A DNA stretch of 64,000 nucleotides. Source: a virus. A model generated the notes under the pieces. It worked only from the letters and a program-made list of their open reading frames with translations, ran no database searches and was not told where the DNA came from. The first letter of the stretch is position 1, and every line of letters begins with the position of its first letter. The stretch is from positions 5,398 to 69,397 of the IMG/VR virus record IMGVR_UViG_3300028831_000484. The stretch is one strand, 5' to 3'. This document shows, one piece after another, positions 1 through 63,671 of this stretch. Made by a program: the position numbers and the translations under genes.

Positions 1-633
1 GCGCTTTACGACACTCTGAAGGACGCTTCGTTGGAGGAAATGATCATTGAAGCAGCCGAGAAAGTGAACACCACGCCGGAGTTGTTAACGGCGCTCATGC
101 GCGACAAGACTGGCAACCCGGTGATGACAGGCGAAGCCCTGCGTAAAGCAATGGCGCGTTGTCCGTGGAACGCGAGGTTCAAGACGGCGTGTTGGAAGTG
201 CAGCGATATGTTCGTGAAGTTCTCTGGCCGTGACGACTGCTTCTACGGAGCAATCTACAAGAAGCGCAAGGCGCAGGAGATCGCTTACAACTCTCAGAAA
301 AAGTTCGCAGACCAAGCCGCTCAGAAGTTGAAGGACTTCAAGATCGGCAAGAGCACCGATGCTTACAAAGCCTACATCCAAGGGTATCTGCCGGATGCGC
401 ACTTGCACGCTAGGGCCATGAGATACACGGTCAAAGTTTTGCTGAGTCATTGGCAATTGGTGGCCTATTGGTGCCACTTCAAGACCTTGCCGCCAGCACC
501 GTATGCACTCGTATATCTCAAGCCACTGGGCCACACACACCTTATTAAACCACCGAATCTGGAGCTGTTCGAGGAGTTCAAGCCGCTCATTGAAAAGTTG
601 AAGGCTGAATGGCCGGAGTGGTGGGTGGATTAG
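1..633 (+). CDS. Tas-like Nop-domain (IS110-related) RNA-binding protein, 5'-truncated
   Basis: Frame is open back to base 1 (ALYDTLKDAS...), so the start lies outside the window. Motifs PWNARFKTACWK, FYGAIYKKRKAQE, YLPDAHLHARAMRYTVKVLLSH and PPAPY match my recollection of the phage IS110/Nop-like family. A dual-repeat array begins at its stop codon. Confidence 0.8.
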   Translation, partial: ALYDTLKDASLEEMIIEAAEKVNTTPELLTALMRDKTGNPVMTGEALRKAMARCPWNARFKTACWKCSDMFVKFSGRDDCFYGAIYKKRKAQEIAYNSQKKFADQAAQKLKDFKIGKSTDAYKAYIQGYLPDAHLHARAMRYTVKVLLSHWQLVAYWCHFKTLPPAPYALVYLKPLGHTHLIKPPNLELFEEFKPLIEKLKAEWPEWWVD

Positions 634-23517: not shown

Positions 23518-24174
23518 TTATTTTGGGTTCGGAATCAATTGTTTCTTCGGAGTAAAAAACGCCGACTCAGCACCCCAGCCGTAATTCAACCGGTCCCGCA
23601 CGATGGCTGTGGATACACCGAACTTCTCAGAGAGTGCAGCGAGGCATCCTGTGACCCCACGCACAGTCACGATGCGATTGTTGCGCTTGTTTCGGTTTTG
23701 TTCCTTAGTCGTCGCCCAGCGACAGTTCCCAGGCTCGTAATCCTTGTTATTGTCGATTCGTTCAATCGTCATGCCTTGCGGCTTCTCTCCCATGTCGGCG
23801 AGAAAGTTTTCAAAATTTAGCCAGCGTTCACAAACCGCAATGCCCCGCCCGCCGTAAATCGGAAAGTGATGATCTTTAGGATTAAAACAGCGCGCCTTGA
23901 TGTGCGCCCAGCAAATGTATGTTCTGGTTGGCTTCCCCCTCGGCGAGTGCCCGTGCGTCACTTCAGCTAGGGTATCCCGCAAGAAGCATCCACACGATTT
24001 CGTGTCCCCGGTGCGTAATTCTTGGTTGCACACCAGAACCACGGCACCGCAGTCGCACACGCACTTTGAACGCGTGCGGTAATTCCTCCCAGGATTAGTG
24101 CGAATCGACTGCGCGTCATCAACAACTAAAAGCCTCCCGAATCTTTTCCCGATGAGACAGATTTTGACAGGCAT
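23518..24174 (-). CDS. HNH homing endonuclease (YGGRGIxVCxRW family)
   Basis: GKRFGRL..., YGGRGIAVCERW, TIERIDNNKDYEPGNCRWAT. Confidence 0.88.
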   Translation of the reverse strand: MPVKICLIGKRFGRLLVVDDAQSIRTNPGRNYRTRSKCVCDCGAVVLVCNQELRTGDTKSCGCFLRDTLAEVTHGHSPRGKPTRTYICWAHIKARCFNPKDHHFPIYGGRGIAVCERWLNFENFLADMGEKPQGMTIERIDNNKDYEPGNCRWATTKEQNRNKRNNRIVTVRGVTGCLAALSEKFGVSTAIVRDRLNYGWGAESAFFTPKKQLIPNPK

Positions 24175-24238
24175 ACGCGTTGTTCCCCTAAAATTAGGTT
24201 GACATTTAAACCTCCACACCCTCATCGTCAACAACGAA

Positions 24239-24574
24239 ATGTCACTGTGGGCCAGCAAAGCCGACTTAAACGAAACCGAACGGATCCTCAAGTCATCCAT
24301 TCACAACGCAAGGGACACCATTATGGAAGCAATCACCTCATTCGCAAACCGCGTCAACACTGCCTTCGATAAGTTGGGAACGGCCGTCGATGGCGTTGCC
24401 TCAGACGTGGATTTCCTGAAACAACAAATCGCCACGCTGCAAAATTCACCGGGAACCCTTTCGGTGGAAGACCAAGCCACGCTGGACGCCATCCAATCCC
24501 GTGCGGAAACGTTGTCCGACAAGGTGGACGCGCTGGACAAGGCCACCGAACAGCCCCCGGTGCCAACTTCGTAA
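24239..24574 (+). CDS. small coiled-coil protein, antisense to the tail operon (start may be 24323)
   Basis: Heptad-rich AFDKLGTAVDGVASDVDFLKQQIATLQ; followed by a terminator. Confidence 0.65.
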   Translation: MSLWASKADLNETERILKSSIHNARDTIMEAITSFANRVNTAFDKLGTAVDGVASDVDFLKQQIATLQNSPGTLSVEDQATLDAIQSRAETLSDKVDALDKATEQPPVPTS

Positions 24575-45478: not shown

Positions 45479-46672
45479 ATGAACACCAGCACCACGCCAA
45501 GCAATAAGCCCGCACTCCTCAAAAAGGAGGCCCCAACACTGCCGGACCTGATTAAACAACCGCAGTACTCAGATCGTTTCAAAGAAGTCCTGCGCGAACG
45601 CGCTCCGCAATTCATGAGTTCAGTGATGCAGGCCGGGAATGCACTCGGGAAAGATTGCGATCCGAAATCAATCATCGCCTCCGCGATGACTGCCGCCATC
45701 CTTGACCTGCCAATTGATCGTAACTTGGGTTTCGCTTGGTTGGTTCCCTACAAGGCGGGAGGCACGAAATTTGCACAGTTTCAAATGGGCTACAAAGGAT
45801 ACATTCAACTGTCCCTTCGGACGGGTTCCTATCAACGCATGAACGCGCTGGCAGTGAACAAGGAAGTTATGACCGGCTACGATGAGGTAGGGGAACCCGT
45901 CCTTAACTGGAACGCATTCGATCCATCAAAGCCGGTCGTTGGTTACGCCTTCGCATGGAAGACGATTAACGGATTTCAAAAGATTTGTTTCTGGTCAAAG
46001 GCGAGGGTTGAAGAACACGCCAAGCGTTACTCGCAGTCGTATCGTTCCGGTGGAGAGTCGCCATGGAAAACGCACTTCGATGAGATGGGATTAAAAACTG
46101 TGATTGCCAACGAACTGCGACGTTGGGGCATGATGAGCGTGCAGATTCAACGCGCCATCGTAATGGATCAAGCCGTCCTGCGTGACTTGGACGCTGCTCC
46201 GGAATACATCGACGGGAGCGGAACCACCGTTGACATTGAACCTCCATCTAAGCCTGCCTTTGCTGAACCCGCGACGGATGTTGGTGCTCCATCCACGCAT
46301 GTAGAGGGCGCGAAGGCAGGCCCTCCCCCTACGAAGGCGCCAGAACAAGCCCCGGTGCAAGCCCAAGCACAACCACAACCGCAACCCGAAACAGCTCCCG
46401 CTGCGAAGGGACCGGATTCTACGACCGCGACACCTGCATCAACATCAACCCCCCAACAACCATCCGTCCAGGAGCAGGTGCGCGTGCGCATGGAAGCTGG
46501 CGGGGTAGCATACGAAGCCGCCGCCAAGTGGTTGAAAACGTCCGGACGCTGCGAGAACGCTTTAACGTTCAAGGGCTATGGCGAATGGCCGGATGAAGTT
46601 TGTAAGAAGCTGTTAACCGATAAGCGCGGCATAAATAGTGCCATTGTATTGCACGGAACAAAAGCACCGTGA
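45479..46672 (+). CDS. recT: RecT-family single-strand annealing protein
   Basis: CDPKSIIASAMTAAILDLP...LGFAWLVPY...QFQMGYKGYIQL. Confidence 0.9.
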   Translation: MNTSTTPSNKPALLKKEAPTLPDLIKQPQYSDRFKEVLRERAPQFMSSVMQAGNALGKDCDPKSIIASAMTAAILDLPIDRNLGFAWLVPYKAGGTKFAQFQMGYKGYIQLSLRTGSYQRMNALAVNKEVMTGYDEVGEPVLNWNAFDPSKPVVGYAFAWKTINGFQKICFWSKARVEEHAKRYSQSYRSGGESPWKTHFDEMGLKTVIANELRRWGMMSVQIQRAIVMDQAVLRDLDAAPEYIDGSGTTVDIEPPSKPAFAEPATDVGAPSTHVEGAKAGPPPTKAPEQAPVQAQAQPQPQPETAPAAKGPDSTTATPASTSTPQQPSVQEQVRVRMEAGGVAYEAAAKWLKTSGRCENALTFKGYGEWPDEVCKKLLTDKRGINSAIVLHGTKAP

Positions 46673-47153
46673 TTTTGTGGCAAGCGGCGAGGCACACCAT
46701 CAATATCGACATGGCCACAAACTTGGCGGTAAACCATCACCGACTTACAACTGCTGGAGCAACATGTTGAAACGGTGCGAGAATTCGAAGAACGACATGT
46801 TCCACAGGTACGGTGCTCGCGGAATTAAGGTCTGTAAACGCTGGCATGTTTTCAAAAACTTTCTCGATGACATGGGGCCAAAACCCAAAGGCAGAATGCT
46901 TGAACGCAAGGATAACAATGGCAACTACAACAAATCGAATTGCACTTGGGCAACCCCATTTGCTCAAGCCAATAACACCTCCAAGAACGTCCGAGTTGCG
47001 TACCTCGGCTATAATCTGACAATCAGCGAATGGGCCAGGGTTCTAGGTTTTAAGGTGGAAACACTTTGGGTTCGATTGTTCCAGTATAACTGGCCATTGA
47101 TTAGAGCGTTTGGCGAACCGATAAATTACGGAAGATGGCACAAGAAACCATGA
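46638..47153 (+). CDS. HNH homing endonuclease (YGGRG family)
   Basis: WSNMLKRC...YGARGIKVCKRW...LERKDNNGNY..SNCTWAT. Confidence 0.87.
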   Translation: MPLYCTEQKHRDFVASGEAHHQYRHGHKLGGKPSPTYNCWSNMLKRCENSKNDMFHRYGARGIKVCKRWHVFKNFLDDMGPKPKGRMLERKDNNGNYNKSNCTWATPFAQANNTSKNVRVAYLGYNLTISEWARVLGFKVETLWVRLFQYNWPLIRAFGEPINYGRWHKKP

Positions 47154-48289
47154 AGATCATAATTGATAAGGAACAATTCTCCGACGAACTCAGCGAACTT
47201 TCTTCAGTAGTGAAGGCTCGCACAACCCTCCCCGTTCTACGGTTCGCGCACTTGGAAGTTCAGGAAGGGCATTTGTTCATTACAGCCGATGATCTGGAGT
47301 GCCGGTTAACAAGATACGTAAAGGCTGTGGAGGGCACGGAATCAGTGGAAGGTGCATGCCTCCTGCCGTTCAAGCTGATTGGAGAATGGTTAAAGCAAGC
47401 CCAGGAAGGACCGCTTGTAATTGAAGGAACGGACAGCTCAGTTGCATTGAGGGCATCCGGGAACTTCAAGATACGTCTTCAGACTTGGGCACCAAAAGAT
47501 TTCCCGCCCGAACCGGAGGCCGGTACAACCAGCGTTCTACAAGCTGATTTGGCACCGTTGAAAACTGTTCGCTTGGCCGTTCATTCAAACGCTCAGGTTT
47601 CAAGACTCGAACTGCAAAGCGTCATCATTGAACGTGAAAAAGATCAGCTCATCGCCGTAGGCATGGACGGGAAGCGTCTATGCAGCCGAGTGTTCAATGG
47701 CGAATTAAAAACTGGATTTAATCGCTTGGAAATCCGACCGGAAGTTGTCGATATTGTTGCTGGCCTTGGCGAGGTTGCGGTGCAAGAAGGCGACAGAAAC
47801 TTCATCTTTACCGGCATCAAGAAACCCTTCCGACTGCTGGCACGCAAAACGGAAACCAAGGCGCCGGACTGGAGAAGAGTCGTGGACGGATGGAAGTATA
47901 TTGCCTATGCCAGCATGATGCGAGAGGACCTACTGGCGGCGATTACGAGCTGTCACTGCCTGCGCGGCTACGACGATGACCACGTTCGGTTCAACATTCA
48001 ATACAACGAGCCGGACGGAGGAGCAATCGTTATCAACGCAACGACGATGATGGGAGAAAGCGAAACAACCGTACCGGCCAAGGTTACCGATAAATTCCCG
48101 TCCGTGCTCCTGCCAACCGACCAAGTGCTGGAATTTTTGGAGCAGGAAAAAGACGAGGAACTTATTAAGCTAGCCTTCGTTGAGGACGGACGCATTGTGT
48201 CCTTCTTCGCGGGGAAGGATAAAAGCTATCACGTTTGCGGTTTCTTAACAACTCAACACCCGGATACGCATGCAGGAAAAAAACATTGA
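47135..48289 (+). CDS. dnaN: DNA polymerase III beta-clamp-like protein
   Basis: VVKARTTLPVLRFAHLEVQEGHLFITADDLE; VAGMDGKRL-like motif (AVGMDGKRL); PDWRRVV; ~380 aa. Confidence 0.78.
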   Translation: MAQETMKIIIDKEQFSDELSELSSVVKARTTLPVLRFAHLEVQEGHLFITADDLECRLTRYVKAVEGTESVEGACLLPFKLIGEWLKQAQEGPLVIEGTDSSVALRASGNFKIRLQTWAPKDFPPEPEAGTTSVLQADLAPLKTVRLAVHSNAQVSRLELQSVIIEREKDQLIAVGMDGKRLCSRVFNGELKTGFNRLEIRPEVVDIVAGLGEVAVQEGDRNFIFTGIKKPFRLLARKTETKAPDWRRVVDGWKYIAYASMMREDLLAAITSCHCLRGYDDDHVRFNIQYNEPDGGAIVINATTMMGESETTVPAKVTDKFPSVLLPTDQVLEFLEQEKDEELIKLAFVEDGRIVSFFAGKDKSYHVCGFLTTQHPDTHAGKKH

Positions 48290-49125: not shown

Positions 49126-49752
49126 GTGAAAACCATTGCGCCAGGTGACAAATTCGGGCGATTAACAATCGTCTCAGTAATTCCAAGGAATAATGGAGAA
49201 AAGATTCTTTATCAACGATACTTGGCGCAGTGCGAGTGCGGAAGAACATCAAAGCCATTTCACTATGGTCTTTTGAGCGGGCAATCAAGAAGTTGTCGAT
49301 GCTTAGCCATTGATCGAAGCACAACTCATGGCATGACTCATTCCGTAGAATACAGAGTATGGGTGGACATGCACAAGCGATGCGGCAATCCAAGCTTATC
49401 ATATTTTAAGTATTACGGTGGACGCGGGATTAAGGTATGTAAACGATGGAAAAAATTTGAGAATTTTTTCGAAGACATGGGACCTCGGCCGTCACCAAAG
49501 CACCAACTTGAGCGAAACGACAACAGCGGAAATTACTGCAAGAAGAATTGCTGTTGGGCTACGAGCATCCAACAAGTCCAAAACAGAAGAACAACACTGC
49601 GCTTCACAAACGACGGTGTCACGTTAACACTGATGGAATGGTCGAAGAAAATCGGCATCGACTATCTTTGCTTATGGCATCGCATTACAAAATTGCACTG
49701 GAGTTTTGCAAAAGCGATCAATACGCCAGTTCGTAAGAAAGCCAAGCCATGA
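49126..49752 (+). CDS. HNH homing endonuclease (YGGRG family)
   Basis: YYGGRGIKVCKRW...LERNDNSGNYCKKNCCWAT. Confidence 0.87.
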   Translation: MKTIAPGDKFGRLTIVSVIPRNNGEKILYQRYLAQCECGRTSKPFHYGLLSGQSRSCRCLAIDRSTTHGMTHSVEYRVWVDMHKRCGNPSLSYFKYYGGRGIKVCKRWKKFENFFEDMGPRPSPKHQLERNDNSGNYCKKNCCWATSIQQVQNRRTTLRFTNDGVTLTLMEWSKKIGIDYLCLWHRITKLHWSFAKAINTPVRKKAKP

Positions 49753-50395: not shown

Positions 50396-50953
50396 ATGAG
50401 TGATTACCTGGAAGTCCTAGTTGGAGCAGCGAAGTCTATTTCGGACATCTACAAAAAGCAGGCCGTCGTCATTCTATCATGGGACGAAGAGCACCAGGTG
50501 GTGCACACGACAACTTACGGGATTGAACTGGTTAATAAGTTTCGTGCTGCAAACTGGGGTGAAATTTGCACAACTGCCATTGTCGATCAACTTCGACATT
50601 TCAAACGAGAAATCGAAAATCTTCGCGCTGACGTGGATCGTTTTCACAAAGAACGCCAAGAGTTACGAACCATCCTTGGTGCGGGCGGCATGGACTTCGA
50701 AGGTGACAGCTTGTTGGTATCAGCGCAGAAAGCCATGGCGGAGATCATTAAACTTCGTTCCATGGAAACCAAGTGGAAGAAATCGTTGGACTGGTCTGAG
50801 CAGGCCAGGTTGGAATGGTTGAAGGAATTCGACGGTTACAGGAAACGCATTGCGGAGCTGGAAGGGTTCATGAACCGCGCACTGCATGACCAAACGCCCG
50901 GACTGCTGTGCAAACCAGACTGCCCGCGCTGTGCCTACGAGAAAACGAAATGA
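50396..50953 (+). CDS. coiled-coil hypothetical protein
   Basis: Heptad-rich; C-terminal CKPDCPRC. Confidence 0.6.
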   Translation: MSDYLEVLVGAAKSISDIYKKQAVVILSWDEEHQVVHTTTYGIELVNKFRAANWGEICTTAIVDQLRHFKREIENLRADVDRFHKERQELRTILGAGGMDFEGDSLLVSAQKAMAEIIKLRSMETKWKKSLDWSEQARLEWLKEFDGYRKRIAELEGFMNRALHDQTPGLLCKPDCPRCAYEKTK

Positions 50954-51243
50954 CTGAATACACCCACACCTGCTGCGTATGCGGACACGTTTGGGAGCAA
51001 CCGCCAAAAGACTGGAAAAAGACGCGCACTGCGGTCACGGTCAACAAGGACGGGCCGTATTGCGAAGGATGCAGAACCGGGATTGAGTTTTTGAGGATTG
51101 CAAGGGTAAGAAAAAAAGCACCGATTGTTTGGTTGAACGATCTAGCCGAAAGAGAACTGCTCAATGAATACGAATTTAAATACGAACAAGCTACGACCCG
51201 ATCTGCCACCATTGACACCACGGATAGCCAAGCTGCCGATTGA
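50950..51243 (+). CDS. hypothetical Zn-finger-like protein
   Basis: CCVCGH...YCEGC; ATGA overlap. Confidence 0.55.
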   Translation: MTEYTHTCCVCGHVWEQPPKDWKKTRTAVTVNKDGPYCEGCRTGIEFLRIARVRKKAPIVWLNDLAERELLNEYEFKYEQATTRSATIDTTDSQAAD

Positions 51244-51252: not shown

Positions 51253-51849
51253 ATGAGGGACGGCAGACAAAAACACCCACTCTACCAGACGTGGCGCGGG
51301 ATGCTAAGACGCTGTGAGAAGCCAACCGCAACCGGCTACAAAAACTACGGTGGACGTGGCATTGAGGTCTGTGAACGCTGGCACAACTTTTGGATGTTCA
51401 TTGAAGACATTGGACCGAAGCCAGGATCTGACTACCAGCTTGAACGAAAGAACAACGACGGCAATTACGAACCAGGCAACGTCAAGTGGGCGACAACTAA
51501 AGAGCAGACCAGGAACGCAAGATACAACAAACCAATGACAGTTGCCGGAACAACGAAGATCATGTCGGATTGGGCTAACGGCAATGGCATTCCGAAAAGC
51601 ACACTGTTCAATCGGCTGAAACGCGGACTGTCGCACGAGCAAGCCATCATGAAGCCAATACAATTCAAGGCCGAAGCCGGTTCAGTGGTTCCGCTCGGGG
51701 CGCGAGCGATTGCACTTGAACGAGGCATAAAAATTGAAACACTCCACAGCCGAATGCGCCGTGGATGGTCGTTGCACGATGCACTTAACGCGCCAGTAGG
51801 ACCACAACACGGAGGAAATTATGGAACAAAAATACAAAGTCAGAGCTGA
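51253..51849 (+). CDS. HNH homing endonuclease (YGGRG family)
   Basis: YGGRGIEVCERW...LERKNNDGNYEPGNVKWAT. Confidence 0.87.
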   Translation: MRDGRQKHPLYQTWRGMLRRCEKPTATGYKNYGGRGIEVCERWHNFWMFIEDIGPKPGSDYQLERKNNDGNYEPGNVKWATTKEQTRNARYNKPMTVAGTTKIMSDWANGNGIPKSTLFNRLKRGLSHEQAIMKPIQFKAEAGSVVPLGARAIALERGIKIETLHSRMRRGWSLHDALNAPVGPQHGGNYGTKIQSQS

Positions 51850-52670: not shown

Positions 52671-52928
52671 ATGGCAAAGTTATCACCAGAAGAAGAAGCA
52701 ACGCGCAGGTTCTGCAAAGCCTACTGGGCTTGGCTGCGAAGGGACCTTGTGGAGGAACCACTGCCGGTAGACTTCGGCGTTGACCCGCAGTTCGGTGAAG
52801 CAGTGGCCAGGCAGATTCACATAGAATTCGAAGATCGTGTTATGCAGAAGACTTTGGCTAACCTGCCTCAACGGCCAGTCAAGAGAAGCGCTAGCAACAA
52901 TTCAGACGAACGCAAACCGATGTTGTAG
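52671..52928 (+). CDS. small hypothetical protein
   Basis: Chained ORF; its 3' end overlaps a guide-like unit. Confidence 0.55.
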   Translation: MAKLSPEEEATRRFCKAYWAWLRRDLVEEPLPVDFGVDPQFGEAVARQIHIEFEDRVMQKTLANLPQRPVKRSASNNSDERKPML

Positions 52929-53151
52929 CATTCAAAATACAAGTTAGCAACATAGCCACAGTGAACAAGCACGAGCTACAGGAGGAATACCAGTATCGCT
53001 ACGACGAGCGGCTTGGTATCTTTTGCGGAAATAACGAACCTACCGTTGAACAAAAAGCCATTGCCACCGAAGAGGCAGAGCAATGGTTAGAGGAGGAGAT
53101 GGAACGAAGTCAAATGCCGGGATAGCAACAAACCTGTTATACGTCGCGCCA
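52877..53151 (+). repeat. TIGR-like mini-array 4 (3 dispersed units)
   Basis: agtca-N10-tagcaaca at 52877/52892 and 53108/53123; attca-N10-tagcaaca at 52930/52945. Confidence 0.65.
52961..53125 (+). CDS. 54-aa acidic hypothetical protein (not in the ORF track)
   Basis: GTG start; NKHELQEEYQYRYDERLGIFCG...; lies between guide-like units. Confidence 0.5.
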   Translation: MNKHELQEEYQYRYDERLGIFCGNNEPTVEQKAIATEEAEQWLEEEMERSQMPG

Positions 53152-53175
53152 TTAACTTGGCGCGTTTCTTTTACA

Positions 53176-53391
53176 TCACCCACCGGTTGCTGGCGGAGGA
53201 GGCCCGCCAAACGCTGAAGGAGGATTGTCCGCCATCCAATCATCGTAACTTTTATTGACCCGCGCACGCAACGCTTCCCAATCGGCCTGCGTTGGCTCGC
53301 CGCTGGCAAATAAAACCTTAAACTCGGCCACCAGCTCCGGCGCCAGCTTCAACGCAGCCTCGATGATCTGTAACGCCAAAATTGCATTCAT
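53176..53391 (-). CDS. small hypothetical protein
   Basis: ATGA overlap with the upstream gene. Confidence 0.6.
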   Translation of the reverse strand: MNAILALQIIEAALKLAPELVAEFKVLFASGEPTQADWEALRARVNKSYDDWMADNPPSAFGGPPPPATGG

Positions 53392-53768
53392 GGTTTTGAT
53401 TGGACGAAGGCTTTAATCACGGAGACCAGATCGGCCTGCGCGTTCATAACCAGCGTAATGGTGTTTTGAAGGCTGGATGTGTCGTTCGTTTTGACGCCAG
53501 CCTCGGCCAGGTCGATAAGCAGGTTCATCGACTTTTGATACTTACCGTAGGCACCCCGGACCTTGTCCTGTTGTTCAGGGGTTGCCTTGCCGGAGTCAAC
53601 GTAGGTCTTCCACAAGGTCATCGCCGCCTCCACGGACAACACGGCGGCTCCGGAAGTCTTGTAGCTCGTTTGTTGAAAGGATTTACAACCTTGTGGCGCC
53701 AGGCCCAGGAACCCAACGCAAAACAAAAGGAGCACCGATAGGACCACCGAACGAGCTTGAATCTTCAT
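53388..53768 (-). CDS. putative lipoprotein / exported helical protein
   Basis: Hydrophobic leader ending ..LAPQGC; preceded by the palindrome. Confidence 0.6.
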   Translation of the reverse strand: MKIQARSVVLSVLLLFCVGFLGLAPQGCKSFQQTSYKTSGAAVLSVEAAMTLWKTYVDSGKATPEQQDKVRGAYGKYQKSMNLLIDLAEAGVKTNDTSSLQNTITLVMNAQADLVSVIKAFVQSKP

Positions 53769-53773
53769 GCACT

Positions 53774-53795
53774 GTCACCCTAAACTTAGGGGATG
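53774..53795. promoter_or_regulatory. 22-bp palindrome copy (degenerate second arm)
   Basis: gtcaccct-aaactt-aggggatg, 5 nt before the ATG at 53768. Confidence 0.55.
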
Positions 53796-54098
53796 AACAG
53801 TGTCAATGTTAAAGCTTGGTGGCGGTTAATTTCAATAACCTGTCCGACTTGGAGGCAAAAGTTCAGGCTTTTTCTGCACATGATGAAGCGGGCGCGAGCC
53901 GGTTTCGTAACTCCAAGCATCAGACGGCAACGCCTGGCGGTCTGTGAACAATGCCCGATTTATTGCCCTGAACTCCAAAGTTGTGGCACAATCGAAAGCA
54001 AGCTTGGCTGCAAATGTTACGTGCCGATCCTGACTTGGTTCAAGGGCAGTTGCTGGGCGAAAACAGATTTCCCTGAATCGGAGCTGGGTTGGGATTGA
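53793..54098 (+). CDS. Cys-rich small phage protein
   Basis: RLAVCEQC...CG...GCKC...CW pattern. Confidence 0.55.
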   Translation: MNSVNVKAWWRLISITCPTWRQKFRLFLHMMKRARAGFVTPSIRRQRLAVCEQCPIYCPELQSCGTIESKLGCKCYVPILTWFKGSCWAKTDFPESELGWD

Positions 54099-54900
54099 TT
54101 TTCCAAGCCAACCCCCTGAGTATTCGACTAACGTTTCCGCCATTGTTGTTGAACCTTTTGGCAATAGCGTCAACAGTCCAACCGTCTTTTCTTAGTTGGT
54201 GCATCTGTCTAACGATTTCCACACTAAGCGCGGTTTTGCTTTGATTGTAGTTCTGTTCGGCACGAGTTGCAAAACGACAGTTGCCGGGTTCATAGTCCCC
54301 ATCGTTGTCAATCCTCTCGATTGTTAAGTCGGGCTTCCAGCCGTGATTTTTCGCCCAAGCGTAAAACACATCGAAGCTGCACGCCCACTGCTCGCAGACC
54401 TTTATTCCACGCAGATAATAATACTTTCGTTCGCCCTCATTTGCCTTTGAGGAACACCTTCTTAACATCCCTCGCCAGATCCGCTTTAACTTTTTGTAGT
54501 CAGGCAGGAGCACTGGCTTTGGTGGTTTTACTTCTGGAATCTTTTTGGGTCTCAACTCCCACGCTTTCTTTTGCGCGCAATTGAAGCATCTAACGCTGAC
54601 TTTCTTTGGACTAGAATATGTAACCAGTTTTTCCTTCCCACAATCAACACATCGAACAATATACGTCCAGTGCTTCCCAACTTGGTTGGCTCGCTGAACA
54701 CCATCAATGAAAATCCGCCTGTGTGACGAACTGCAAGCGTGCGAGCAGTAAAGTCGATGCCTGAAGTGTTCTATCGGTTCGATTCGTCCCGAAGATAATC
54801 GGCCGCGAGAAAAAGATTTGCCGCAATGCTGGCAAATTTTGTCAGGCAATGGAATTAGTGCTGACACTTGGCTGGGAGTAGGCGAATTCCATTTGGTCAT
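54040..54900 (-). CDS. HNH homing endonuclease (YGGRG-like) with N-terminal Zn fingers
   Basis: CQHCGK..YCSHAC; RGIKVCEQW; TIERIDNDGDYEPGNCRFAT. Confidence 0.85.
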   Translation of the reverse strand: MTKWNSPTPSQVSALIPLPDKICQHCGKSFSRGRLSSGRIEPIEHFRHRLYCSHACSSSHRRIFIDGVQRANQVGKHWTYIVRCVDCGKEKLVTYSSPKKVSVRCFNCAQKKAWELRPKKIPEVKPPKPVLLPDYKKLKRIWRGMLRRCSSKANEGERKYYYLRGIKVCEQWACSFDVFYAWAKNHGWKPDLTIERIDNDGDYEPGNCRFATRAEQNYNQSKTALSVEIVRQMHQLRKDGWTVDAIAKRFNNNGGNVSRILRGLAWKINPNPAPIQGNLFSPSNCP

Positions 54901-55222
54901 CCTTTTGGAACGAAGCGGCCGGGGAAGCTTTAAGGTTGGCTCCGTAGAGCGCGCCGAATTTGTTAACTCGACGTAGCAAGGTAGCCCTCCTTGCCCTCAT
55001 CACCTCCCCGGCCTTTTTCAGCTCACACCAGACGGGGTGTACAACCCGGCACCCTTCACAGTATTGAGCCGGATCTTCGAAGACCTGCCAGCAGTTCGGA
55101 TCGTTGGTGCACGGATGATCAGCGCGCAAGTCGTTCCTTTGTTTACGAAACGCGGAAACTTTTTCGTAAGCTTCCCCGAAGGCGATGCCCGCCTTGGCAA
55201 TGTTAATGAGTTCTTTGTTCAT
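54842..55222 (-). CDS. hypothetical protein
   Basis: Starts immediately after array 2. Confidence 0.55.
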   Translation of the reverse strand: MNKELINIAKAGIAFGEAYEKVSAFRKQRNDLRADHPCTNDPNCWQVFEDPAQYCEGCRVVHPVWCELKKAGEVMRARRATLLRRVNKFGALYGANLKASPAASFQKDDQMEFAYSQPSVSTNSIA

Positions 55223-55224
55223 GA

Positions 55225-56030
55225 TGACTACGCTCTGCCATTTTGTTGCGAATGCTGCTCCTGGCTATCGAACAACCATATTGTTGCTATCACTGTCTCT
55301 GTCTTTTAACTATTCATTCTTGGGCTTTGTTGCCATTTCCACTTGCGGCTGCGTGCTACGAGCTTGTTGCGATTTGCCGTTATAACTACTTCATTACCGT
55401 GTTGCTACTTGGTGCTGTGGTTACGAGCTTTCGCCTTGTTGCTATTCAGCATGATGCCTTCGTGCACACTGTTTGTTGCGAACTGGTTGTTTGACTGCGT
55501 TCGGGATTTTTGTTGCCATCTGCTGCTACGACTTCATACGACGTTCCGGTTGCAAACCTCTTCTGTGATTGCGTGCCTTCTCTCTGTTGCCATCGGGCTT
55601 AGTGACTTCATTCGCGGCAAATGTTGCCATCACAGTCTGCGGCTGCGTGCTCATTATATGTTGCCATCAGGATTCATGACTTCGTGCTCGGTGAACGTTG
55701 CTATCGACACCCTTAACTACGCTCTTCGGCATTGTCGCCATCATTATTCTTGGCTGCACTCGTCTGGTCTGTTGCGATTCAAGCGCGTGATTAACGCATG
55801 AGCTTTCTGTCGCTATTTGCTACGTTGGCTTCGTTCGCTCAGGGATCTTGTCGCTATCCAGCATATTGGCTGCGCGTGTAACGTTCTTGTTGCGATGCTC
55901 CTTCATGACTACGTTTTATGAACACGGCATTATTGTTGCGATTCCTCACCATGGCTACGCTTTGTGCTCCTGTTGCAATTTCCCATCGTAACTACGTTCG
56001 GCCAATTTGTTGCGATCTTGTGATGTGACT
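55225..56030 (-). repeat. TIGR-like dual-repeat guide array 2 (21 units)
   Basis: TGT(T/C)GC-type motif on + at 55244,55282,55328,55365,55400,55437,55474,55511,55548,55585,55622,55659,55696,55733,55770,55808,55849,55888,55934,55971,56008; mostly 37-nt period; same consensus as array 1. Confidence 0.9.
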
Positions 56031-56040
56031 GGGTTATGGG

Positions 56041-56412
56041 TTACGATGGAGGCTGACGTAAACGTTGCAGCCTGTCAATCTCCGCCGCGATTAAAGCTCC
56101 GGCTTTGATCAAGTTGTAAATCGGGTCTGGAGACGGTTTCCACCACTCAGACCCCCATGGCCAGGTTACCTGCTCTGGCTTGCATTCCGAATACTCCATC
56201 GGGTAACAATTCTCGTCTATGCCGCGTGCCGAATTGAGCGTGTGGAGAACATGCGTTCCGTCCGGTCCAAGCGCGTAACACGCAGCGGCAATGCGAAGCT
56301 GCCCGTCGAAGTGTTCGTTGTCGTGCTCCTCCGTCCATCCTTCGCCTCCATGGTCCTTCGGGGCCTTTTGGCGTTCTCGTTCTGCTGCGATGAGTTCGAT
56401 TCCAGTTTTCAT
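56041..56412 (-). CDS. conserved phage protein (IAAERxRQ..EGWT.EHD family)
   Basis: ELIAAERERQ...EGWTEEHDNEH..GQLRIAAACYA...LIKAGALIAAEIDRLQR. Confidence 0.75.
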   Translation of the reverse strand: MKTGIELIAAERERQKAPKDHGGEGWTEEHDNEHFDGQLRIAAACYALGPDGTHVLHTLNSARGIDENCYPMEYSECKPEQVTWPWGSEWWKPSPDPIYNLIKAGALIAAEIDRLQRLRQPPS

Positions 56413-56678
56413 AAAGCCGGTGGTTCGGGTTCTTGGGGGAACGGCAAAACGCCGCAATGCAGGATCCTGTCCTTGCCGAATTCGGCCAAGCCCAAACAGG
56501 CCATCGCTCCGCCGTGCCAATAGCAGGTGTGCGCGTTGCACCGGTCCCCCTTCTCATCCTCTGTCTCCCAGTCCAAAGCAATGAGCACATGCTCGAAGTG
56601 TTCGCCAAGCAGGGAAAAGGCTTTGCGGATCGCATCCCGCTGGGCAGGCGTCATGTCATCGGGGTATTTGGCGCTCAT
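56409..56678 (-). CDS. hypothetical protein
   Basis: ATGA-chained. Confidence 0.6.
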   Translation of the reverse strand: MSAKYPDDMTPAQRDAIRKAFSLLGEHFEHVLIALDWETEDEKGDRCNAHTCYWHGGAMACLGLAEFGKDRILHCGVLPFPQEPEPPAL

Positions 56679-56998
56679 GGCTCAGCCCAAGATTCTCCAC
56701 GAACTGCCTTGTCGAACAGTTCTTCAGCCCGCGCAAGAAGAACCGGCGCTTTGGCGTATTTACCATATTCAGTATGGCCCGCTAATATCTCGCGCTCAGG
56801 TAGTTGGCTGCCGTCTGGAAAGGTTCTGGCTTTTGCAATGCGAATCTTGTGCACCTCGTAATACTTCACCGGCCCTTCAATGCTTTCGTAGATGACCGCC
56901 TTTCGGCAGGCAGAAATCTTCAATAGCCTGAGCCGATATTTGCCATTCAAGAATTCCAGTGGGACTTTCGTTTTATCGACCTGGTTCGTTGTTCTCAT
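56675..56998 (-). CDS. hypothetical protein
   Basis: ATGA-chained; YEV...FPDG...E..GKYA pattern. Confidence 0.6.
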   Translation of the reverse strand: MRTTNQVDKTKVPLEFLNGKYRLRLLKISACRKAVIYESIEGPVKYYEVHKIRIAKARTFPDGSQLPEREILAGHTEYGKYAKAPVLLARAEELFDKAVRGESWAEP

Positions 56999-57024
56999 AA
57001 AAACGCTAAAAACGCTAAAAACGC
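56998..57024. repeat. 3 x 9-bp tandem repeat TAAAAACGC
   Basis: Exact copies at 56998, 57007, 57016, abutting a start codon. Confidence 0.8.
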
Positions 57025-57141
57025 ATTAGAGGGTTGGAGGAGCGATCCTGATTTGTGGTGCGCCCCTTTTTACCAATCGGGCGGCAAACGCATTTACGGG
57101 TACCTGCCTCGTGACGCATTGCATGGTTCTGGCACTGTTCT

Positions 57142-57591
57142 TCATGGCGGCACGTCCTTGTAATCCCAGCCTCCATCTGCCCCACGTCTGACCATCCGAA
57201 ACTTGATCATGGGGTACATCCGGGCCACCACCTTGACCTTGACCCATGAATCTTCCCACATATGCGCCCCCTTCACCTCGTATCCCAACCAGTTCCCCAG
57301 CTCGTCTATGCAGATGAAATCGCAAGTGTACCGGCACTTGTCCGCAAGCTTCAACGTAACCGATTGCACGTAAATCTTCGGATACCCCTGCTGCAACAAA
57401 TGCAGGTAAAACGCCCGCTCCAGCTTGTTCAACCCGTCCACGTCCTTCGATTGGCGAACGAGCAGCTTTTGCAGTTCCCGGCCGGGCGCCGGGTTGTCCA
57501 GCACGTAACGGCTCATCGGCGTGCTCTCCGGGTTCAAGGCCGGGTTCTTGGCCAGGAACTTGCGATACTGCTCGTCCGTCCATCGTGGCAT
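57142..57591 (-). CDS. PD-(D/E)XK endonuclease (DUF1064 / resolvase-like)
   Basis: NKLERAFY...RYTCDF...YEVKG. Confidence 0.75.
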   Translation of the reverse strand: MPRWTDEQYRKFLAKNPALNPESTPMSRYVLDNPAPGRELQKLLVRQSKDVDGLNKLERAFYLHLLQQGYPKIYVQSVTLKLADKCRYTCDFICIDELGNWLGYEVKGAHMWEDSWVKVKVVARMYPMIKFRMVRRGADGGWDYKDVPP

Positions 57592-57617
57592 GTAAGTTGT
57601 TGACGTTTAACTACTTA

Positions 57618-57875
57618 TCAAAAAGGTACATCGTCACTGTCATCCATCGGCGGAGGCGCAGGTTTGTTTACGGCCGGTGCGCTGCGTTCCTTGGGCAATT
57701 GCAGGTTCAGGGTCATGAACTTCTTCCCGTTCTGACTTTCCTTGATCCATCCGGCCATGCGATATTCCACGCCTTTGACCGTCATTTTGCCCGTATAATC
57801 AGGCCGTTTATCGCCCGGTTCCTTCTCCTCGTTTCTGAAGAGGATCCCGCTCATGTCGTAGGTTTTTTCTGCCAT
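57618..57875 (-). CDS. small SSB-like protein
   Basis: GILFRNEEK...RPDYTG...AGWIKE; acidic DDSDDVPF tail. Confidence 0.72.
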   Translation of the reverse strand: MAEKTYDMSGILFRNEEKEPGDKRPDYTGKMTVKGVEYRMAGWIKESQNGKKFMTLNLQLPKERSAPAVNKPAPPPMDDSDDVPF

Positions 57876-57899
57876 AGTTCCTTCCTTTTTTGTTCCTTT

Positions 57900-58172
57900 T
57901 TAATGGAATTTTATCCTGCCATCCGCAATGAAATCAATGAGTTCCTGAACCGTCATCGCCCCGGTGCACTCCTTCTCCAGCCAAATGTCGTCAATTTCAC
58001 AGTTCAAGGAGTCCTCAAGCTCCAACGAGAAATCAATCCGCTCCAACGAGTCGAACTTCAACTCCGCAATCGTCGTTTGCAGCGATACCCCAGCCGCCAG
58101 CTCTGAGTTGTTGCGCAGGATTTCAAGAACCACGTCGTGCAGCAGGTTGTATTGGGCGGTTGTGGGCTTCAT
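57900..58172 (-). CDS. acyl carrier protein-like
   Basis: ELKFDSLERIDFSLELED...TVQELIDFI; DSL phosphopantetheine motif; acidic, 90 aa. Confidence 0.8.
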   Translation of the reverse strand: MKPTTAQYNLLHDVVLEILRNNSELAAGVSLQTTIAELKFDSLERIDFSLELEDSLNCEIDDIWLEKECTGAMTVQELIDFIADGRIKFH

Positions 58173-60049
58173 AGATCGAAGGGAGGTGGCGGTTCAGGCG
58201 CGGGCGGCTCCAAAGGCCCTGGTTCAGGTGGAGGAGGTGGCGTAAAGTCAAGAAGTGGGTCAATTTTTGGATCCGCAACCGGTCCAACCTTGCAGTAGCG
58301 CATGACATCAGCAAAAAACCAGAAGCCAAACGTGCCTTCCACGCCCGTATCCCGCTGCTTGTCGCATTTGACCAGCGCATCCGCCGAATGATCGTGAGGA
58401 TCATCGTTATTTTTCTTCTTGTTCCTCCAAATCACCATGACGTTGTCGGCTTGGTTCGTTAAATCGCCGCTCCCTTTGACATCCTGCTTCGTAGCCGAGG
58501 TAAACTCATCAGTTTTTTTACGACTGTGAACCACCAGGTGCACATGCGCGTCATAAAGCTGAGCGTGAGCCGACAATTCATTCGAAAAAGCACGTTGCCC
58601 GTCCAAGTCATCACCCGCCAAATCAATTTTCATGAGCGAATCGACCACGAAATGATCGATGCCATACCTGGCCGAGGCGTATTCCATCAACTCAAGAACT
58701 TCTGCGGTCTTAACGATGCCCTTCAAATCGAAAATCCACAGCTTGCCAGTCATCCATTCCAAAACCTGATCGATTTCTTCGTTGGTAACGCTCGTTTTAA
58801 CCAAAGCCTGACGTATCATGCGCCAAAGAGTTATCTTTCCGGGCATCTCCATCGAAGCTATAGCCACCGTTTGATCCGCTAGCATGGCGTGCAACATCAG
58901 CTCAGAAAGAAAAATTGATTTTCCGTGCCCAGAGAACCCCGTCCAAATCGTCATAGCGGCCGGTGCGAACTTAACCTTGTTATGCAACAGGTCCGGAATG
59001 AAGCCTTCAGGCTCGTTGCCGGTAGGATTAGCGACTTCATGAATTTCATCGGAGAATTCAATGGGTCGTTTAATGCCAGCAGGAACAAAAGGCTGCGCAT
59101 TCAACAGTGCCTTTCCAAAAAACTCCCGCTCGCATCCGTGTTGCAAGGCTTCGTTCGCATCCTTGAAGCCTTCCAGCACCACGCGAAAGCAACGATGCCG
59201 CCCCAGCCGCTTGGCTACACCCTCCGCTGCTTCCATGCCCGCCTTGTCGGAATCGAAAGACAAAAAGATTTTATCGAACGCCTGCAAGTTCTCCCATTCG
59301 AAATCAATCCATGAACGATCCGATGCACCCTGCGGAACCGACAACGCAGGGAACCCAACCTCCGCCCACGTTAACGCATCGATCTCTCCCTCCGTGATGA
59401 CTACCTCACGACACTTCGCCGGAAAAGCCTGCCAACCGAACAGGGAGGGTGGCGTGCCAGTGCCTTCTTTGCGTATAAGTTTCTTCCCGTCCGGTCCACG
59501 CTTCACGTTCAGATATTTCATCGCCAGCAACTCATCGTTCGGGGAATAATACGGGAAGGCGATTTCCGCCCGCGCACCCGGTCCTTCACCGGTCATCAAC
59601 TCTTTCATTCGAAACGCACGCAGCGTTTCAAACGACAACGCCCGTTGACCCGTCAGATATTCGCAGACCGGGGATACGAAACGAACAAGGACCGCAGAAG
59701 CAGGCTCAGCGATCTTTGACCACTTCCGTTCTCCAAACGTAGACTGCGGTTCCTTGATGTGTAGAAACTCCCGCGCCATAGCAAGAGCTTTAACCAACTT
59801 CACGCCCTTCGATGCTACAATCAAATCCAACAAGTCGCCGGAGGAGCTACTACCACCCGCCGCGAAATCACACCACACCCCGGCTTTATCACCAATCAAA
59901 TGAACTTTTAACGACGAGCCGCTACCCCCGTTGACGTTGCTCGCTTCATACTCGTTTCCAACTCGTTTCCCACCGGGTAACAACCAGTGGGCCACCGCTT
60001 CAGCTCGTTGAGCCAATAACCTGGACAAATCTTTAGCATCGTATTTCAT
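58169..60049 (-). CDS. bifunctional primase-helicase (TOPRIM + SF4, T7 gp4/Twinkle-like)
   Basis: VITEGEIDAL, FDSDKAG (TOPRIM); TGFSGHGKS, FVVDSL, VVHSRK, KGSGDLTNQADNV (SF4). Confidence 0.9.
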   Translation of the reverse strand: MKYDAKDLSRLLAQRAEAVAHWLLPGGKRVGNEYEASNVNGGSGSSLKVHLIGDKAGVWCDFAAGGSSSSGDLLDLIVASKGVKLVKALAMAREFLHIKEPQSTFGERKWSKIAEPASAVLVRFVSPVCEYLTGQRALSFETLRAFRMKELMTGEGPGARAEIAFPYYSPNDELLAMKYLNVKRGPDGKKLIRKEGTGTPPSLFGWQAFPAKCREVVITEGEIDALTWAEVGFPALSVPQGASDRSWIDFEWENLQAFDKIFLSFDSDKAGMEAAEGVAKRLGRHRCFRVVLEGFKDANEALQHGCEREFFGKALLNAQPFVPAGIKRPIEFSDEIHEVANPTGNEPEGFIPDLLHNKVKFAPAAMTIWTGFSGHGKSIFLSELMLHAMLADQTVAIASMEMPGKITLWRMIRQALVKTSVTNEEIDQVLEWMTGKLWIFDLKGIVKTAEVLELMEYASARYGIDHFVVDSLMKIDLAGDDLDGQRAFSNELSAHAQLYDAHVHLVVHSRKKTDEFTSATKQDVKGSGDLTNQADNVMVIWRNKKKNNDDPHDHSADALVKCDKQRDTGVEGTFGFWFFADVMRYCKVGPVADPKIDPLLDFTPPPPPEPGPLEPPAPEPPPPFDL

Positions 60050-60069
60050 AAGTTACCTTTCTGCGCGCC

Positions 60070-60277
60070 CGGCCGCATCGCATCGGTTGTTGCAATTCCC
60101 GTGCTTGTCTTGGCCGGGCGCGCTTCAATGTATTGGTTGTCGCTACTGCCTACGTTGATTACTCGAACAAGGTGTTTGTCGCTATCCCGTCGAATGTTTG
60201 AACGAACTGTCTGGTTGTTGCCATCTCGTCTCATGACTGAACGAACGCCAAGTGTGTTGCTATTGAGCTTTCTGTCT
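60070..60277 (-). repeat. TIGR-like dual-repeat guide array 3 (5 units)
   Basis: Loop motif on + at 60088,60138,60177,60216,60255 (spacing 50,39,39,39); edge variant TTCGTTC. Confidence 0.85.
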
Positions 60278-60287
60278 CTCGTGAAAT

Positions 60288-61217
60288 TCATAGACTCGGC
60301 TTCCTCACCTGCGGCGGCGGATTTAAAACTCTCCTTCGCCTCGAAATCTCCCCATTCTCATCAAACCCCTCCAGCGTCGTCTGCTCACCCACGACCTTTC
60401 CAACCTCCTCCCGCATCACCGGCAAATCACGCGCCGAGTAATACGAATCAAACTTGGTTTTTGCGAACAACGTGATCGGCCGAAGGTATTCCTCCTGCGG
60501 CGTCCCTTTCCAACGGCTGACCTGCCGATTGATCATGACCCTACATCCCGCCTCCTCCACACCAGCCTCCGCCAGCCTCGCAGCAATTATCGAAAGATTG
60601 GACTCCACCTCCCGAAACGGCTTCCCAGTCGCCTGCGCCAAGTGTCCCAATAACCTGCGCGCCACCTCATAACGAACAATCTTCTCTGAATCACCGTTTG
60701 TGCTTGCCTTAGTAATCGCGCGCGCGGTACAAGGATCTCTTACAAGGTCCTTGTAAGAATTCTGAGTAAGATCCTGATCCTGATCCTTATCCTCATGGGA
60801 GGGGGCCTCCCATGCCACTGGGAGTGGGGGTGGGAGGGGGGCTACCAGGGGGACTGGGAGGGGGGCTACCACCCCATCGCTTCCTATCAAAAGCCCATGT
60901 TTCTTCAACAATGCCATCACTCGAACATGGTATTGGCATCGTCCTGATAGCTCTCCGTATTGAAACTTGATGAACTTCGGAATAAACCACTTCGCCTCCG
61001 CCAGCCTCCTCACCCTGTCCCCCAATAATCCCATGTCCGTTTCCTTAAAACCTCCCGCCCCTACTCCTGACTCGAAATTTACCCTGTCCCAATCTAACTC
61101 GATTACTCCTGCCCCATCACATTGATCGCAGATATACAACCACAACCACTGCAATCGCATTCCAAGCTGCCGGAACCATGGATCTCCCCACTTCCCACCT
61201 TCAGTAAATCGCTTCAT
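60288..61217 (-). CDS. phage replication initiator (Phg_2220_C-like C-terminus)
   Basis: MKRFTEGGKWGDPWFRQL N-terminus; YLRPITLFAKTKFDSY C-terminus; DKDQDQD linker. Confidence 0.8.
   Translation of the reverse strand: MKRFTEGGKWGDPWFRQLGMRLQWLWLYICDQCDGAGVIELDWDRVNFESGVGAGGFKETDMGLLGDRVRRLAEAKWFIPKFIKFQYGELSGRCQYHVRVMALLKKHGLLIGSDGVVAPLPVPLVAPLPPPLPVAWEAPSHEDKDQDQDLTQNSYKDLVRDPCTARAITKASTNGDSEKIVRYEVARRLLGHLAQATGKPFREVESNLSIIAARLAEAGVEEAGCRVMINRQVSRWKGTPQEEYLRPITLFAKTKFDSYYSARDLPVMREEVGKVVGEQTTLEGFDENGEISRRRRVLNPPPQVRKPSL
60796..60871. repeat. iteron-like direct repeats inside the initiator gene (putative origin)
   Basis: TGGGAGGGGGGCTACCA at 60831 and 60855; partial copy at 60796. Confidence 0.5.
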
Positions 61218-61699
61218 CCGTGACTTTCCTTCCTGTAAAAAAATCGGGACCCCACCAGACTGAGCTTTCTTCGGAAGATACTGGCCGCTCGGCCGTTTCG
61301 AAGCAATCGGTGGAGTCCCAAACTTTAAATCTCGTTTCCAAAGAAAGCTGCCCGCTGTTCTACTCCCTCCACCATCCCCTGCAAGTCTTTTTTTCAACTC
61401 GCTCGTTTTTCCTCCCAATTCAATGAACCTTAATGAAATTGAAATTGTCAGAAAGTTGAGAGAAGGGCCATTGTGCGCCGCCCCGGCCTGGCCCCCTCGC
61501 CCCCGGATCACCCCGGATACTCGAAATCCTGGCGTTTCTCCTCATTTGCAAGGAGTTACGCGTTTCACAACCTCAATCGCCGTATGATCAAGCAAGTCGC
61601 CCGTTTCGGGATTTCTCCAATTCCTTCAAACGACTTGCGGATCAAACGGAAACACAGCTTAGCTGATAGACCTTGACGCGTTCAACGGATTTGACCGTA

Positions 61700-63119: not shown

Positions 63120-63147
63120 TCCTGGCAAGTAGGTTTGGTTCAAAATC

Positions 63148-63184
63148 AGGCGAGATTGAGCGAAGGTTCTGTCTCGCCTTTTTT
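63148..63184 (+). terminator. probable intrinsic terminator
   Basis: aggcgaga...tctcgcct followed by a T-run. Confidence 0.55.
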
Positions 63185-63209
63185 GCATCAAAATGGATAC
63201 AATGGTGGC

Positions 63210-63671
63210 ATGAAGCAGGCGCACGGTTATGCTGGGAAGGTGAAGCATCCGCTTTATCTAGTGCGGATGGCGATGCTGGAAAGGTGTTACAACAAAAAGC
63301 ATCACGATTACAACCGGTATGGTGGTCGCGGGGTGATAGTTTGCAAGCAGTGGATTAACGATCCTGTGGCTTTTATTAAATGGGGATTATCACATGGATG
63401 GGCACCGGGGTTAACGATTGATCGGAAGAACAACGACGGGCCGTATTCACCTGGCAACTGTCGATTCAGCACTCGATTGCAGCAGGCTCGTAATCGGTCG
63501 GACAACGTGTTGACGGCCGCAGACGTGGTGTGGATTCGCAAATTGTTCAATGAGCTTGCGGTGCCCTACGGGGACAGGGTGTGGTTCGACAGGGAAGTTG
63601 CGGCCGTGTTTGGAGTAGCGCACAACACAGTTCGAAACGTACGGCTGGGCAGAACATGGAAACAGCTTTGA
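63210..63671 (+). CDS. HNH homing endonuclease (YGGRG family)
   Basis: YGGRGVIVCKQW...TIDRKNNDGPYSPGNCRFST. Confidence 0.86.
   Translation: MKQAHGYAGKVKHPLYLVRMAMLERCYNKKHHDYNRYGGRGVIVCKQWINDPVAFIKWGLSHGWAPGLTIDRKNNDGPYSPGNCRFSTRLQQARNRSDNVLTAADVVWIRKLFNELAVPYGDRVWFDREVAAVFGVAHNTVRNVRLGRTWKQL

Follow-up and report, generated by a model that had tools for sequence, protein, structure and literature searches.

TIGR-Tas systems were described in 2025. In their dual-repeat form, the guide arrays are made of units of about 36 nt, each combining two short repeats of 8–12 nt, in alternation, with two spacers that measure about 9 nt, and a rho-independent terminator typically comes after the end of an array (Faure et al. 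2025, PMC12045711). In that work 5 kb on each side of tas were scanned, and arrays were placed upstream of tas, downstream of it or on both sides. TIGRFinder (Xu et al. 2026, bioRxiv 10.64898/2026.09.09.750476) annotates arrays 'surrounding tas loci', which are classed as upstream, downstream, flanking or intra-tas. As for the proteins, TasA acts as an RNA-guided DNA binder and repressor that does not cut (bioRxiv 10.64898/2026.09.09.750476; 10.64898/2026.08.11.744272), and the Nop domain of SpTasH cleaves the edge repeat by means of the catalytic residues Y289 and H296 (PMC13421893), a Y/H dyad reported to be conserved across dual-repeat systems. The DNA considered here is a stretch of 64,000 nt, hereafter the window, which corresponds to bases 5398–69397 of the 77,647-bp IMG/VR record IMGVR_UViG_3300028831_000484, a linear record rated 100% complete by CheckV. 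Its source is a temperate tailed soil phage, and what it probably carries is a dual-repeat TIGR-TasA system whose guide genes are distributed over five places, embedded in operons, and serve a single TasA protein in trans. Two of these places adjoin tas and the other three do not, which is a departure from the published description. Positions below are those of the window unless they are given as genome positions.

Guide units at five loci

The motif AGYCA-N10-TNGCRACA has 21 exact matches in the window, against 0.07 expected from shuffled sequences, and all of them fall within the four loci that a preliminary description, made from the letters of the window, had named. With relaxed and position-matrix scans, 40 units are counted in the window (11 + 3 + 21 + 5), in line with the approximately 40 of that description, and 46 genome-wide, the remaining six forming a fifth locus upstream of tas and outside the window. 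The five groups are A0 (6 units, genome 3913–4142, i.e., window -1484 to -1255), A1 (11 units with periods of 35–39 nt, 632–1033, + strand), A2 (three single units, 52877–53144, +), A3 (21 units, mostly with a period of 37 nt, 55223–56030, -) and A4 (five units with periods of 39, 39, 39 and 50 nt, 60079–60277, -). A2, formerly read as an array, consists of three separate units located at the 3' ends of two small open reading frames (ORFs). The recurrence of the repeat grammar at three distal places was upheld by an independent check, in which a 23-nt matrix was trained on A1 alone, a choice made to avoid circularity, and applied with a threshold set at the 95th percentile of the genome-wide maxima of 100 shuffles. 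This matrix recovers 13 units of A3, three of A4, two of A2 and two of A0, and zero elsewhere in the 77.6 kb of the record.

From a structural point of view, each unit comprises an edge repeat ending in AGYCA, a spacer A of 9 nt, a loop repeat with the sequence (A/G)TNGCAACA and a spacer B of 8–9 nt, after which the next edge repeat begins with G-(A/C/T)-(A/T)-CG; the usual period is 35–39 nt, and the 46 units match this pattern. The distal units are thus confirmed as dual-repeat TIGR units, and they form one family with those adjoining tas. Their spacers are essentially all distinct, with only three pairs of near-identical 9-mers, and the spacer comparison agrees with the earlier statement that no spacer A is shared between the first two of the gap-filling arrays, here A1 and A3. 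Since the repeats of the distal arrays score as high as those of the proximal arrays while the spacers all differ, selection appears to have acted on the repeats, rather than decay. The RNA of A3 folds less well than all 20 of 20 dinucleotide shuffles (z = +2.93), and this unstructured character is as expected for the dual-repeat class but does not suit the stem-loop class. The alternative that these are CRISPR arrays was considered and rejected, as repeat and tandem-repeat scans returned no identical repeats of 25–36 nt and the units, which recur about every 37 nt, have two short repeats each.

A few particulars of individual units may be added. An identical 9-mer, GAAAGCTCA, is found as spacer B of an A3 unit (55835) and as spacer A of the first A4 unit (60282); about 0.02 exact spacer matches are expected among all pairs, so that the sharing of GAAAGCTCA either is accidental or reflects the way in which spacers arise. 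In A0, one spacer B (CAAACAAAG) is carried by two successive units, and a single base distinguishes two others; elsewhere in the genome, no clear duplication of units is seen. Finally, a degenerate, solitary unit-like sequence, AGCAT-N10-TTAGCAACA, is located in the last codons of the HNH gene that lies between A0 and tas (genome 4872–4894, window -525 to -503), just before the start of tas, and scores under the matrix threshold.

The single Tas protein

The 3' two-thirds of tas lie within the window (1–633, +), with the probable start at an ATG at genome position 4919 (window -478). A profile search finds this one tas gene in the whole record. Thus, no tas accompanies the distal arrays, as had been stated, and a second copy just outside the window, which the preliminary description had named as one case contrary to its proposal, is excluded for this record. 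The product matches the Pfam family Transposase_20 (3e-7), the RNA-binding domain of IS110/Nop type, and a profile built from 22 homologues matches the TasR structure TaTasR (9mty) at 1.5e-22 and TasH at 1.8e-12. Its AlphaFold2 (AF2) model, with a mean confidence (pLDDT) of 85.8, is all-helical with a disordered N-terminus of 41 residues, and the top 11 matches of this model in the PDB are TasH and TasR, each with a probability of 1.00, followed by recombinases of the IS110 family. Homologues are numerous, amounting to 673 in a word-indexed search and to 2019 cluster representatives in an exhaustive one, and are mostly 270–400 residues long; the closest is 47% identical, and the present protein differs in carrying an insertion of about 55 residues. 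No nuclease domain was detected by Pfam, and neither an HNH nor a RuvC domain is fused to the Nop domain, which places the protein in the TasA type. It is therefore a Nop/coiled-coil Tas protein of the TasA subtype.

With respect to RNA processing, the family has the C-terminal consensus PPxPYxIAxLGHAH, in which the Y and the H are seven residues apart, as they are in SpTasH. The sequence of the present protein at this site, PAPYALVYLKPLGHTH, corresponds to the conserved P-Y-x6-G-H-x-H block with three extra residues. The alignment with SpTasH stopped short of the C-terminus, and the equivalents of Y289 and H296 are not mappable by sequence; the C-terminal Tyr/His candidates in this protein are Y345, Y349, H355 and H357.

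Two genes upstream of tas deserve mention. The first, located between A0 and tas, encodes an HNH_3 endonuclease of 251 residues (genome 4157–4912, window -1240 to -485), whose stop codon precedes the probable start of tas by 7 nt. The possibility that HNH_3 and TasA together represent a split TasH was rejected, since no similarity of HNH_3 to Tas, or to a TasH of known structure, was detected. The protein resembles homing endonucleases of phages, and where other phages encode homologues of it, these are far from tas. The tight coupling of its gene to that of a nuclease-less TasA is nevertheless noteworthy. The second, ORF107 (genome 3612–3935), runs into A0 and has no Pfam or PHROGs match, yet a homologue (38% identity over 69 residues, E = 9e-9) is encoded at 50915–51115 of an otherwise unrelated Tas-encoding phage, G005, where it sits at the end of the tas-downstream array. 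ORF107 could be a small accessory gene of Tas loci.

Placement of the arrays and its possible consequences

All arrays are oriented in the sense of the genes that flank them, as had been noted, and nearly no free sequence is left around them. A0 begins within the last codons of ORF107 and finishes about 17 nt before the ATG of the HNH_3 gene, whereas A1 begins inside the tas stop codon and finishes 5 nt before the next ATG, which belongs to a 123-residue ORF with no assigned function (ORF123, 1034–1405, +). The latter is followed by a tyrosine integrase gene (1408–2577, +; Pfam Phage_integrase, 3e-24), so that the apparent order of the tas operon is ORF107-[A0]-HNH-tas-[A1]-ORF123-integrase. 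No terminator-like site was found between A1 and the downstream ORF123 and integrase genes. A3 begins 10 nt past the stop codon of a 166-residue ORF (56041–56541), and its final edge repeat abuts the ATG of a 126-residue ORF (54842–55222) which, together with an HNH endonuclease gene (PHROG 374, 6e-37), occupies 54040–55222 on the - strand. A4 is situated between the genes for a replication initiator directly upstream (60288–61511, -; Pfam Phg_2220_C, 1.5e-14; PHROG 428, replication initiation protein) and a primase-helicase directly downstream (58169–60049, -; Pfam Toprim_2, DnaB_C and AAA_25). The filling of the intergenic space from stop to start codon, as previously given for 631/1034, 56041/55222 and 60288/60049, is correct. 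For A2, units 1 and 2 are found at 52877–52966 (+), the first of them coinciding with the last 17 codons of an 85-residue ORF (52671–52928) and the second beginning 2 nt past the stop codon of that ORF, while unit 3 (listed at 53108–53174, +) overlaps the last six codons of a 54-residue ORF (52961–53125). A terminator-like hairpin (53145–53164) and a run of T follow unit 3; apart from this hairpin, the promoter and terminator scans gave counts at or under the shuffle expectation.

The distal groups A2–A4 comprise 29 of the 46 units (63%) and belong to the early replication and recombination region, which includes a + strand operon at 45.4–53.1 kb encoding RecT, a beta-clamp homologue and a PDDEXK nuclease, and a - strand operon at 61.5–53 kb with the initiator and primase-helicase. 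They are 47–59 kb away from the tas end in the linear layout of the record; on a circular genome, the distance would be at least 17 kb. A3 and A4 are located on the strand opposite to tas, and therefore cannot be products of read-through of the tas transcript.

These observations lead to the following proposal. As the groups are packed between genes or into gene ends, and in the sense direction, each of them would most likely be transcribed as part of the surrounding operon. We infer that the precursor would then be cut at the edge repeats, either by Tas itself or by a host RNase, into guides of about 36–38 nt; that a single TasA dimer would bind units from all five loci in trans; and that the resulting TasA ribonucleoproteins would bind, but not cut, DNA targets located elsewhere than in the phage genome, in keeping with what is published for TasA. 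Among these steps, the loading of one TasA in trans from the distal arrays, which the preliminary description had put forward, is well supported by inference, since the arrays on the opposite strand require separate transcripts and trans loading if they are used at all. Moreover, there is experimental precedent from TasR, which was loaded when the protein and the array were expressed from separate plasmids (PMC12045711).

Several points weigh against this proposal. A search for targets in the phage's own genome, with the geometries rc(A)+B and B+rc(A) (rc, reverse complement) and gaps of 0–2 nt, gave none above permuted-pair controls, and the same tandem search, extended to 2.45 Mb of DNA from other phages and metagenomes, returned zero matches with up to one mismatch allowed. 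Probably, the host or competing elements contain the targets. In public collections, chance alone would give about 3 exact 18-mer matches for each guide. The runs that contain the phage are three DNA soil metagenomes only, with no RNA run among the matches, and the record is a metagenome contig that has no close relative with which conservation of the layout could be tested. In addition, the arrays may be driven by a dedicated promoter inside an upstream gene, and the location of A4 inside a coupled frame of 81 codons suggests that this stretch may be translated as well, or instead.

This frame, ORF81 (60046–60291, -), contains the whole of A4, matches no Pfam or PHROGs family and had elsewhere been called spurious. 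Two of the three frames of A4 are closed by stop codons inside the repeats, so that an open third frame is not very surprising in itself. Three of the four periods of A4 are 39 nt, a multiple of three that keeps the frame. Less easily dismissed are the junctions of ORF81: the ATG of ORF81 overlaps the TGA of the initiator gene (ATGA), its TGA overlaps the ATG of the primase-helicase gene (ATGA), and a GAGGA lies 9 nt upstream of its own ATG. A4 may thus also be translated, perhaps keeping the initiator and the primase-helicase translationally coupled.

The same position invites the view that the repeats near the initiator act at the DNA level, for example as origin iterons or as sites bound by a protein, and are not RNA genes. 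Origin iterons are near-identical protein-binding repeats of about 17–22 bp, next to or inside the initiator gene, and the space between initiator and primase-helicase is a common site for a phage origin. Nevertheless, this position fits A4 only, and iterons are built otherwise than these units, whose conserved blocks of 5 to 9 nt are split by fully variable 9-mers. Given also that this grammar is found beside tas both here and on many unrelated Tas-encoding metagenome contigs, and that its orientation always follows transcription, we regard this explanation as very improbable.

A further question raised by the placement is whether the embedded arrays are chiefly Tas-dependent cleavage sites that split early polycistronic mRNAs, with guide production as a secondary or additional role. 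If Tas or a host RNase cut every edge repeat, the transcripts would necessarily be broken at three places, namely between initiator and primase-helicase, in the region of A3, and between tas and integrase, and the level of Tas could then tune the replication and integration genes (initiator|primase-helicase, ORF166|ORF126-HNH and tas|integrase). Such a role would agree with the location of arrays exactly between cistrons and without spare sequence, here and in other phages, with the cutting of edge repeats by dual-repeat Tas proteins (PMC13421893), with the presence in this Tas of the conserved C-terminal block, albeit with its three-residue insertion, and with the resemblance of A4 to an insertion at a junction that overlaps in distant relatives. 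These points are matters of geometry, and the dyad of SpTasH, as said above, could not be located in this protein by sequence. Most relatives, furthermore, carry only a terminal array after tas, and a cleavage site has no need of 46 different spacer pairs, a diversity which points to guide function as the primary one. Consequently, we consider the primacy of cleavage unlikely, and only tentatively suggest the related scenario in which, in a subset of phage TIGR-TasA systems, guide units have spread into the junctions of early operons, and in which their Tas-dependent excision would couple the supply of guides to the expression of replication and integration genes.

Conversely, the distal arrays might not be used at all, but be inert passengers, that is, tas-proximal copies moved by recombination or by HNH homing genes. 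About ten HNH paralogues are encoded in the genome, some of them adjoining arrays; the edge variant GTTCGT..A..CA is common to A4 and A0, which suggests copying; and A2 consists of isolated single units. Unused repeats, however, ought to degenerate and to point in both directions, whereas the core repeats of the distal arrays equal those of A1 in their conservation, 21 different spacer pairs are present in A3, which is the largest array, and the arrays are always in sense both here and in other phages. The passenger explanation therefore seems improbable to us, more so than a role in mRNA cleavage, and the distal arrays are more readily understood as functional guide genes of the TasA system.

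The contig might also be an assembly chimera. On this question, the conserved blocks of the units are 9 nt or shorter, and the same family of HNH paralogues is found in both halves of the contig. The phage sequence is present in three runs of one soil-metagenome study, with contigs identical to the window wherever they cover it. As to the remaining gene content, a long block of minus-strand ORFs in the window, the largest of 3099 residues, is taken to contain the structural genes. The approximately ten paralogous HNH endonuclease genes are dispersed genome-wide (for instance at 23518–24300, 46638–47153, 49126–49752, 51253–51849, 54040–54900 and 63135–63671) and are the reason why the repeat scan showed the direct-repeat families D2 and D3. 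The beta-clamp homologue of the RecT/PDDEXK operon corresponds to the DNA polymerase III beta sliding clamp (47135–48289, +), and a 90-residue acyl-carrier-protein-like gene (57900–58172, -; PP-binding, E = 1e-4) is located directly downstream of the primase-helicase. A search for known RNA genes yielded neither an Rfam match nor a tRNA.

Recurrence in other phages and comparison with described systems

Searches with Tas and the primase-helicase revealed no close phage relative in IMG/VR or among isolate phages, the best primase-helicase match among 5.8 billion proteins being 49% identical. The comparison therefore relied on other phages with a homologous TasA (36–44% identity), for which 79 IMG/VR loci within 10 kb of tas were subjected to de novo matrix scans. 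About 88% of these have tas-adjacent arrays only, while nine of the 79 (approximately 11%), some of them possibly false positives, have an array more than 1 kb away from tas with genes in between; all arrays in the 79 loci are on the tas strand. In addition, 13 records were scanned in full, five of which had been picked for already looking dispersed. In two records, G001 and G002, four to five arrays are interleaved with genes across 9 kb, in G003 tas has arrays to its left and right, as far as about 5.7 kb away, in G004 (130 kb) arrays reach up to 34 kb from tas, and in G005 (80.9 kb) two arrays lie 36–39 kb away, with units that are plainly the same as the tas-adjacent ones. The remaining whole records have tas-adjacent arrays only. 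In G002, G004 and G005 the arrays abut same-strand flanking genes, and the compared phages share only Tas and HNH endonucleases with the present one. Thus, the dispersed, operon-embedded layout recurs within this TasA clade in a minority of its members, among which the present phage is the extreme case in its share of distal units, and the only one seen to have arrays on both strands.

Distant relatives without tas are informative for A4 in particular. Three replication modules (L175–L177), whose primase-helicases are 44–47% identical to the one considered here, are devoid of arrays, and in them the primase-helicase gene abuts or overlaps the initiator-like gene. To the question whether relatives lacking tas also lack the arrays, these modules thus speak at their own distance and for the initiator/primase-helicase junction. 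An array-free junction of this kind suggests that A4 is an insertion between the two genes. Beyond these modules, a scan of IMG/VR for the array pattern gave a single chance match inside a large ORF, and prokaryote genomes gave single matches only. In metagenomes, by contrast, the scan retrieved many short contigs with real arrays of this repeat type, four of which also encode a Tas homologue; the other genes of this phage are absent from these contigs.

When set against current knowledge, three aspects of this layout are new: most of the guides lie outside the region examined by current surveys, these guides sit within early operons of protein-coding genes, on both strands, and this embedding recurs in phages that share little else with the one described. 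The preliminary description had considered the layout undescribed. This holds insofar as distal, orphan or trans-acting arrays are unmentioned in the TIGR-Tas literature searched, an absence that is no proof against their being in print elsewhere, but the layout is not unique, as it recurs in G004 and G005.

Regardless of any regulatory coupling, catalogues limited to about 5 kb around tas miss more than half of the guides of some phages; given the distal arrays found here and in two of the 13 whole records, surveys of arrays need whole-genome scans. Likewise, the hunt for targets should use all 46 units instead of the 17 that adjoin tas. The units appear able to colonise new sites, including a junction that overlaps in distant relatives, which bears on the origin and expansion of arrays. 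The production of guides may moreover be tied to transcription in the early replication phase, and processing by Tas may affect neighbouring genes. If the regulatory interpretation were true, the phage would in effect have an RNA-guided system as an integral part of its programme of gene expression.

Among the described systems, the closest are the dual-repeat TIGR-TasA systems, such as FpTIGR of Flavonifractor plautii, which have in common with the present one a nuclease-less Nop/coiled-coil Tas, units of about 36–38 nt, a phage-borne location, arrays directly upstream and downstream of tas, and one array end followed by a terminator. They differ from the present case, in which nearly two-thirds of the units are found tens of kb from tas at three further places, two of them on the opposite strand, packed among unrelated replication and recombination genes. 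The arrays reported with TIGRFinder are similarly located upstream of tas, downstream or both, and include units inside a coding sequence that do not break its frame. Those intragenic units are inside tas, whereas here units overlap the ends of unrelated small ORFs, and A4, unlike the TIGRFinder cases, is contained wholly in an 81-codon ORF far from tas.

Two further comparisons extend beyond TIGR-Tas. Multi-array CRISPR-Cas systems also load one effector from separately transcribed arrays and obtain their guides by cutting a long precursor; multiple arrays per effector being familiar from CRISPR, trans loading in itself will not surprise specialists. CRISPR arrays, however, are normally transcription units of their own with a leader, while the arrays of this phage are leaderless and apparently within protein-coding operons, and neither the protein family nor the guide architecture of CRISPR is related to TIGR-Tas. 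Finally, clusters of box C/D snoRNAs embedded in introns or operons, known from plants, yeast and archaea, resemble this system in that Nop-bound, two-segment guides are cut from longer, gene-bearing transcripts (PMC12045711). In contrast to the snoRNAs, which guide RNA methylation together with fibrillarin and L7Ae, the guides considered here are phage-borne and their expected target is DNA.

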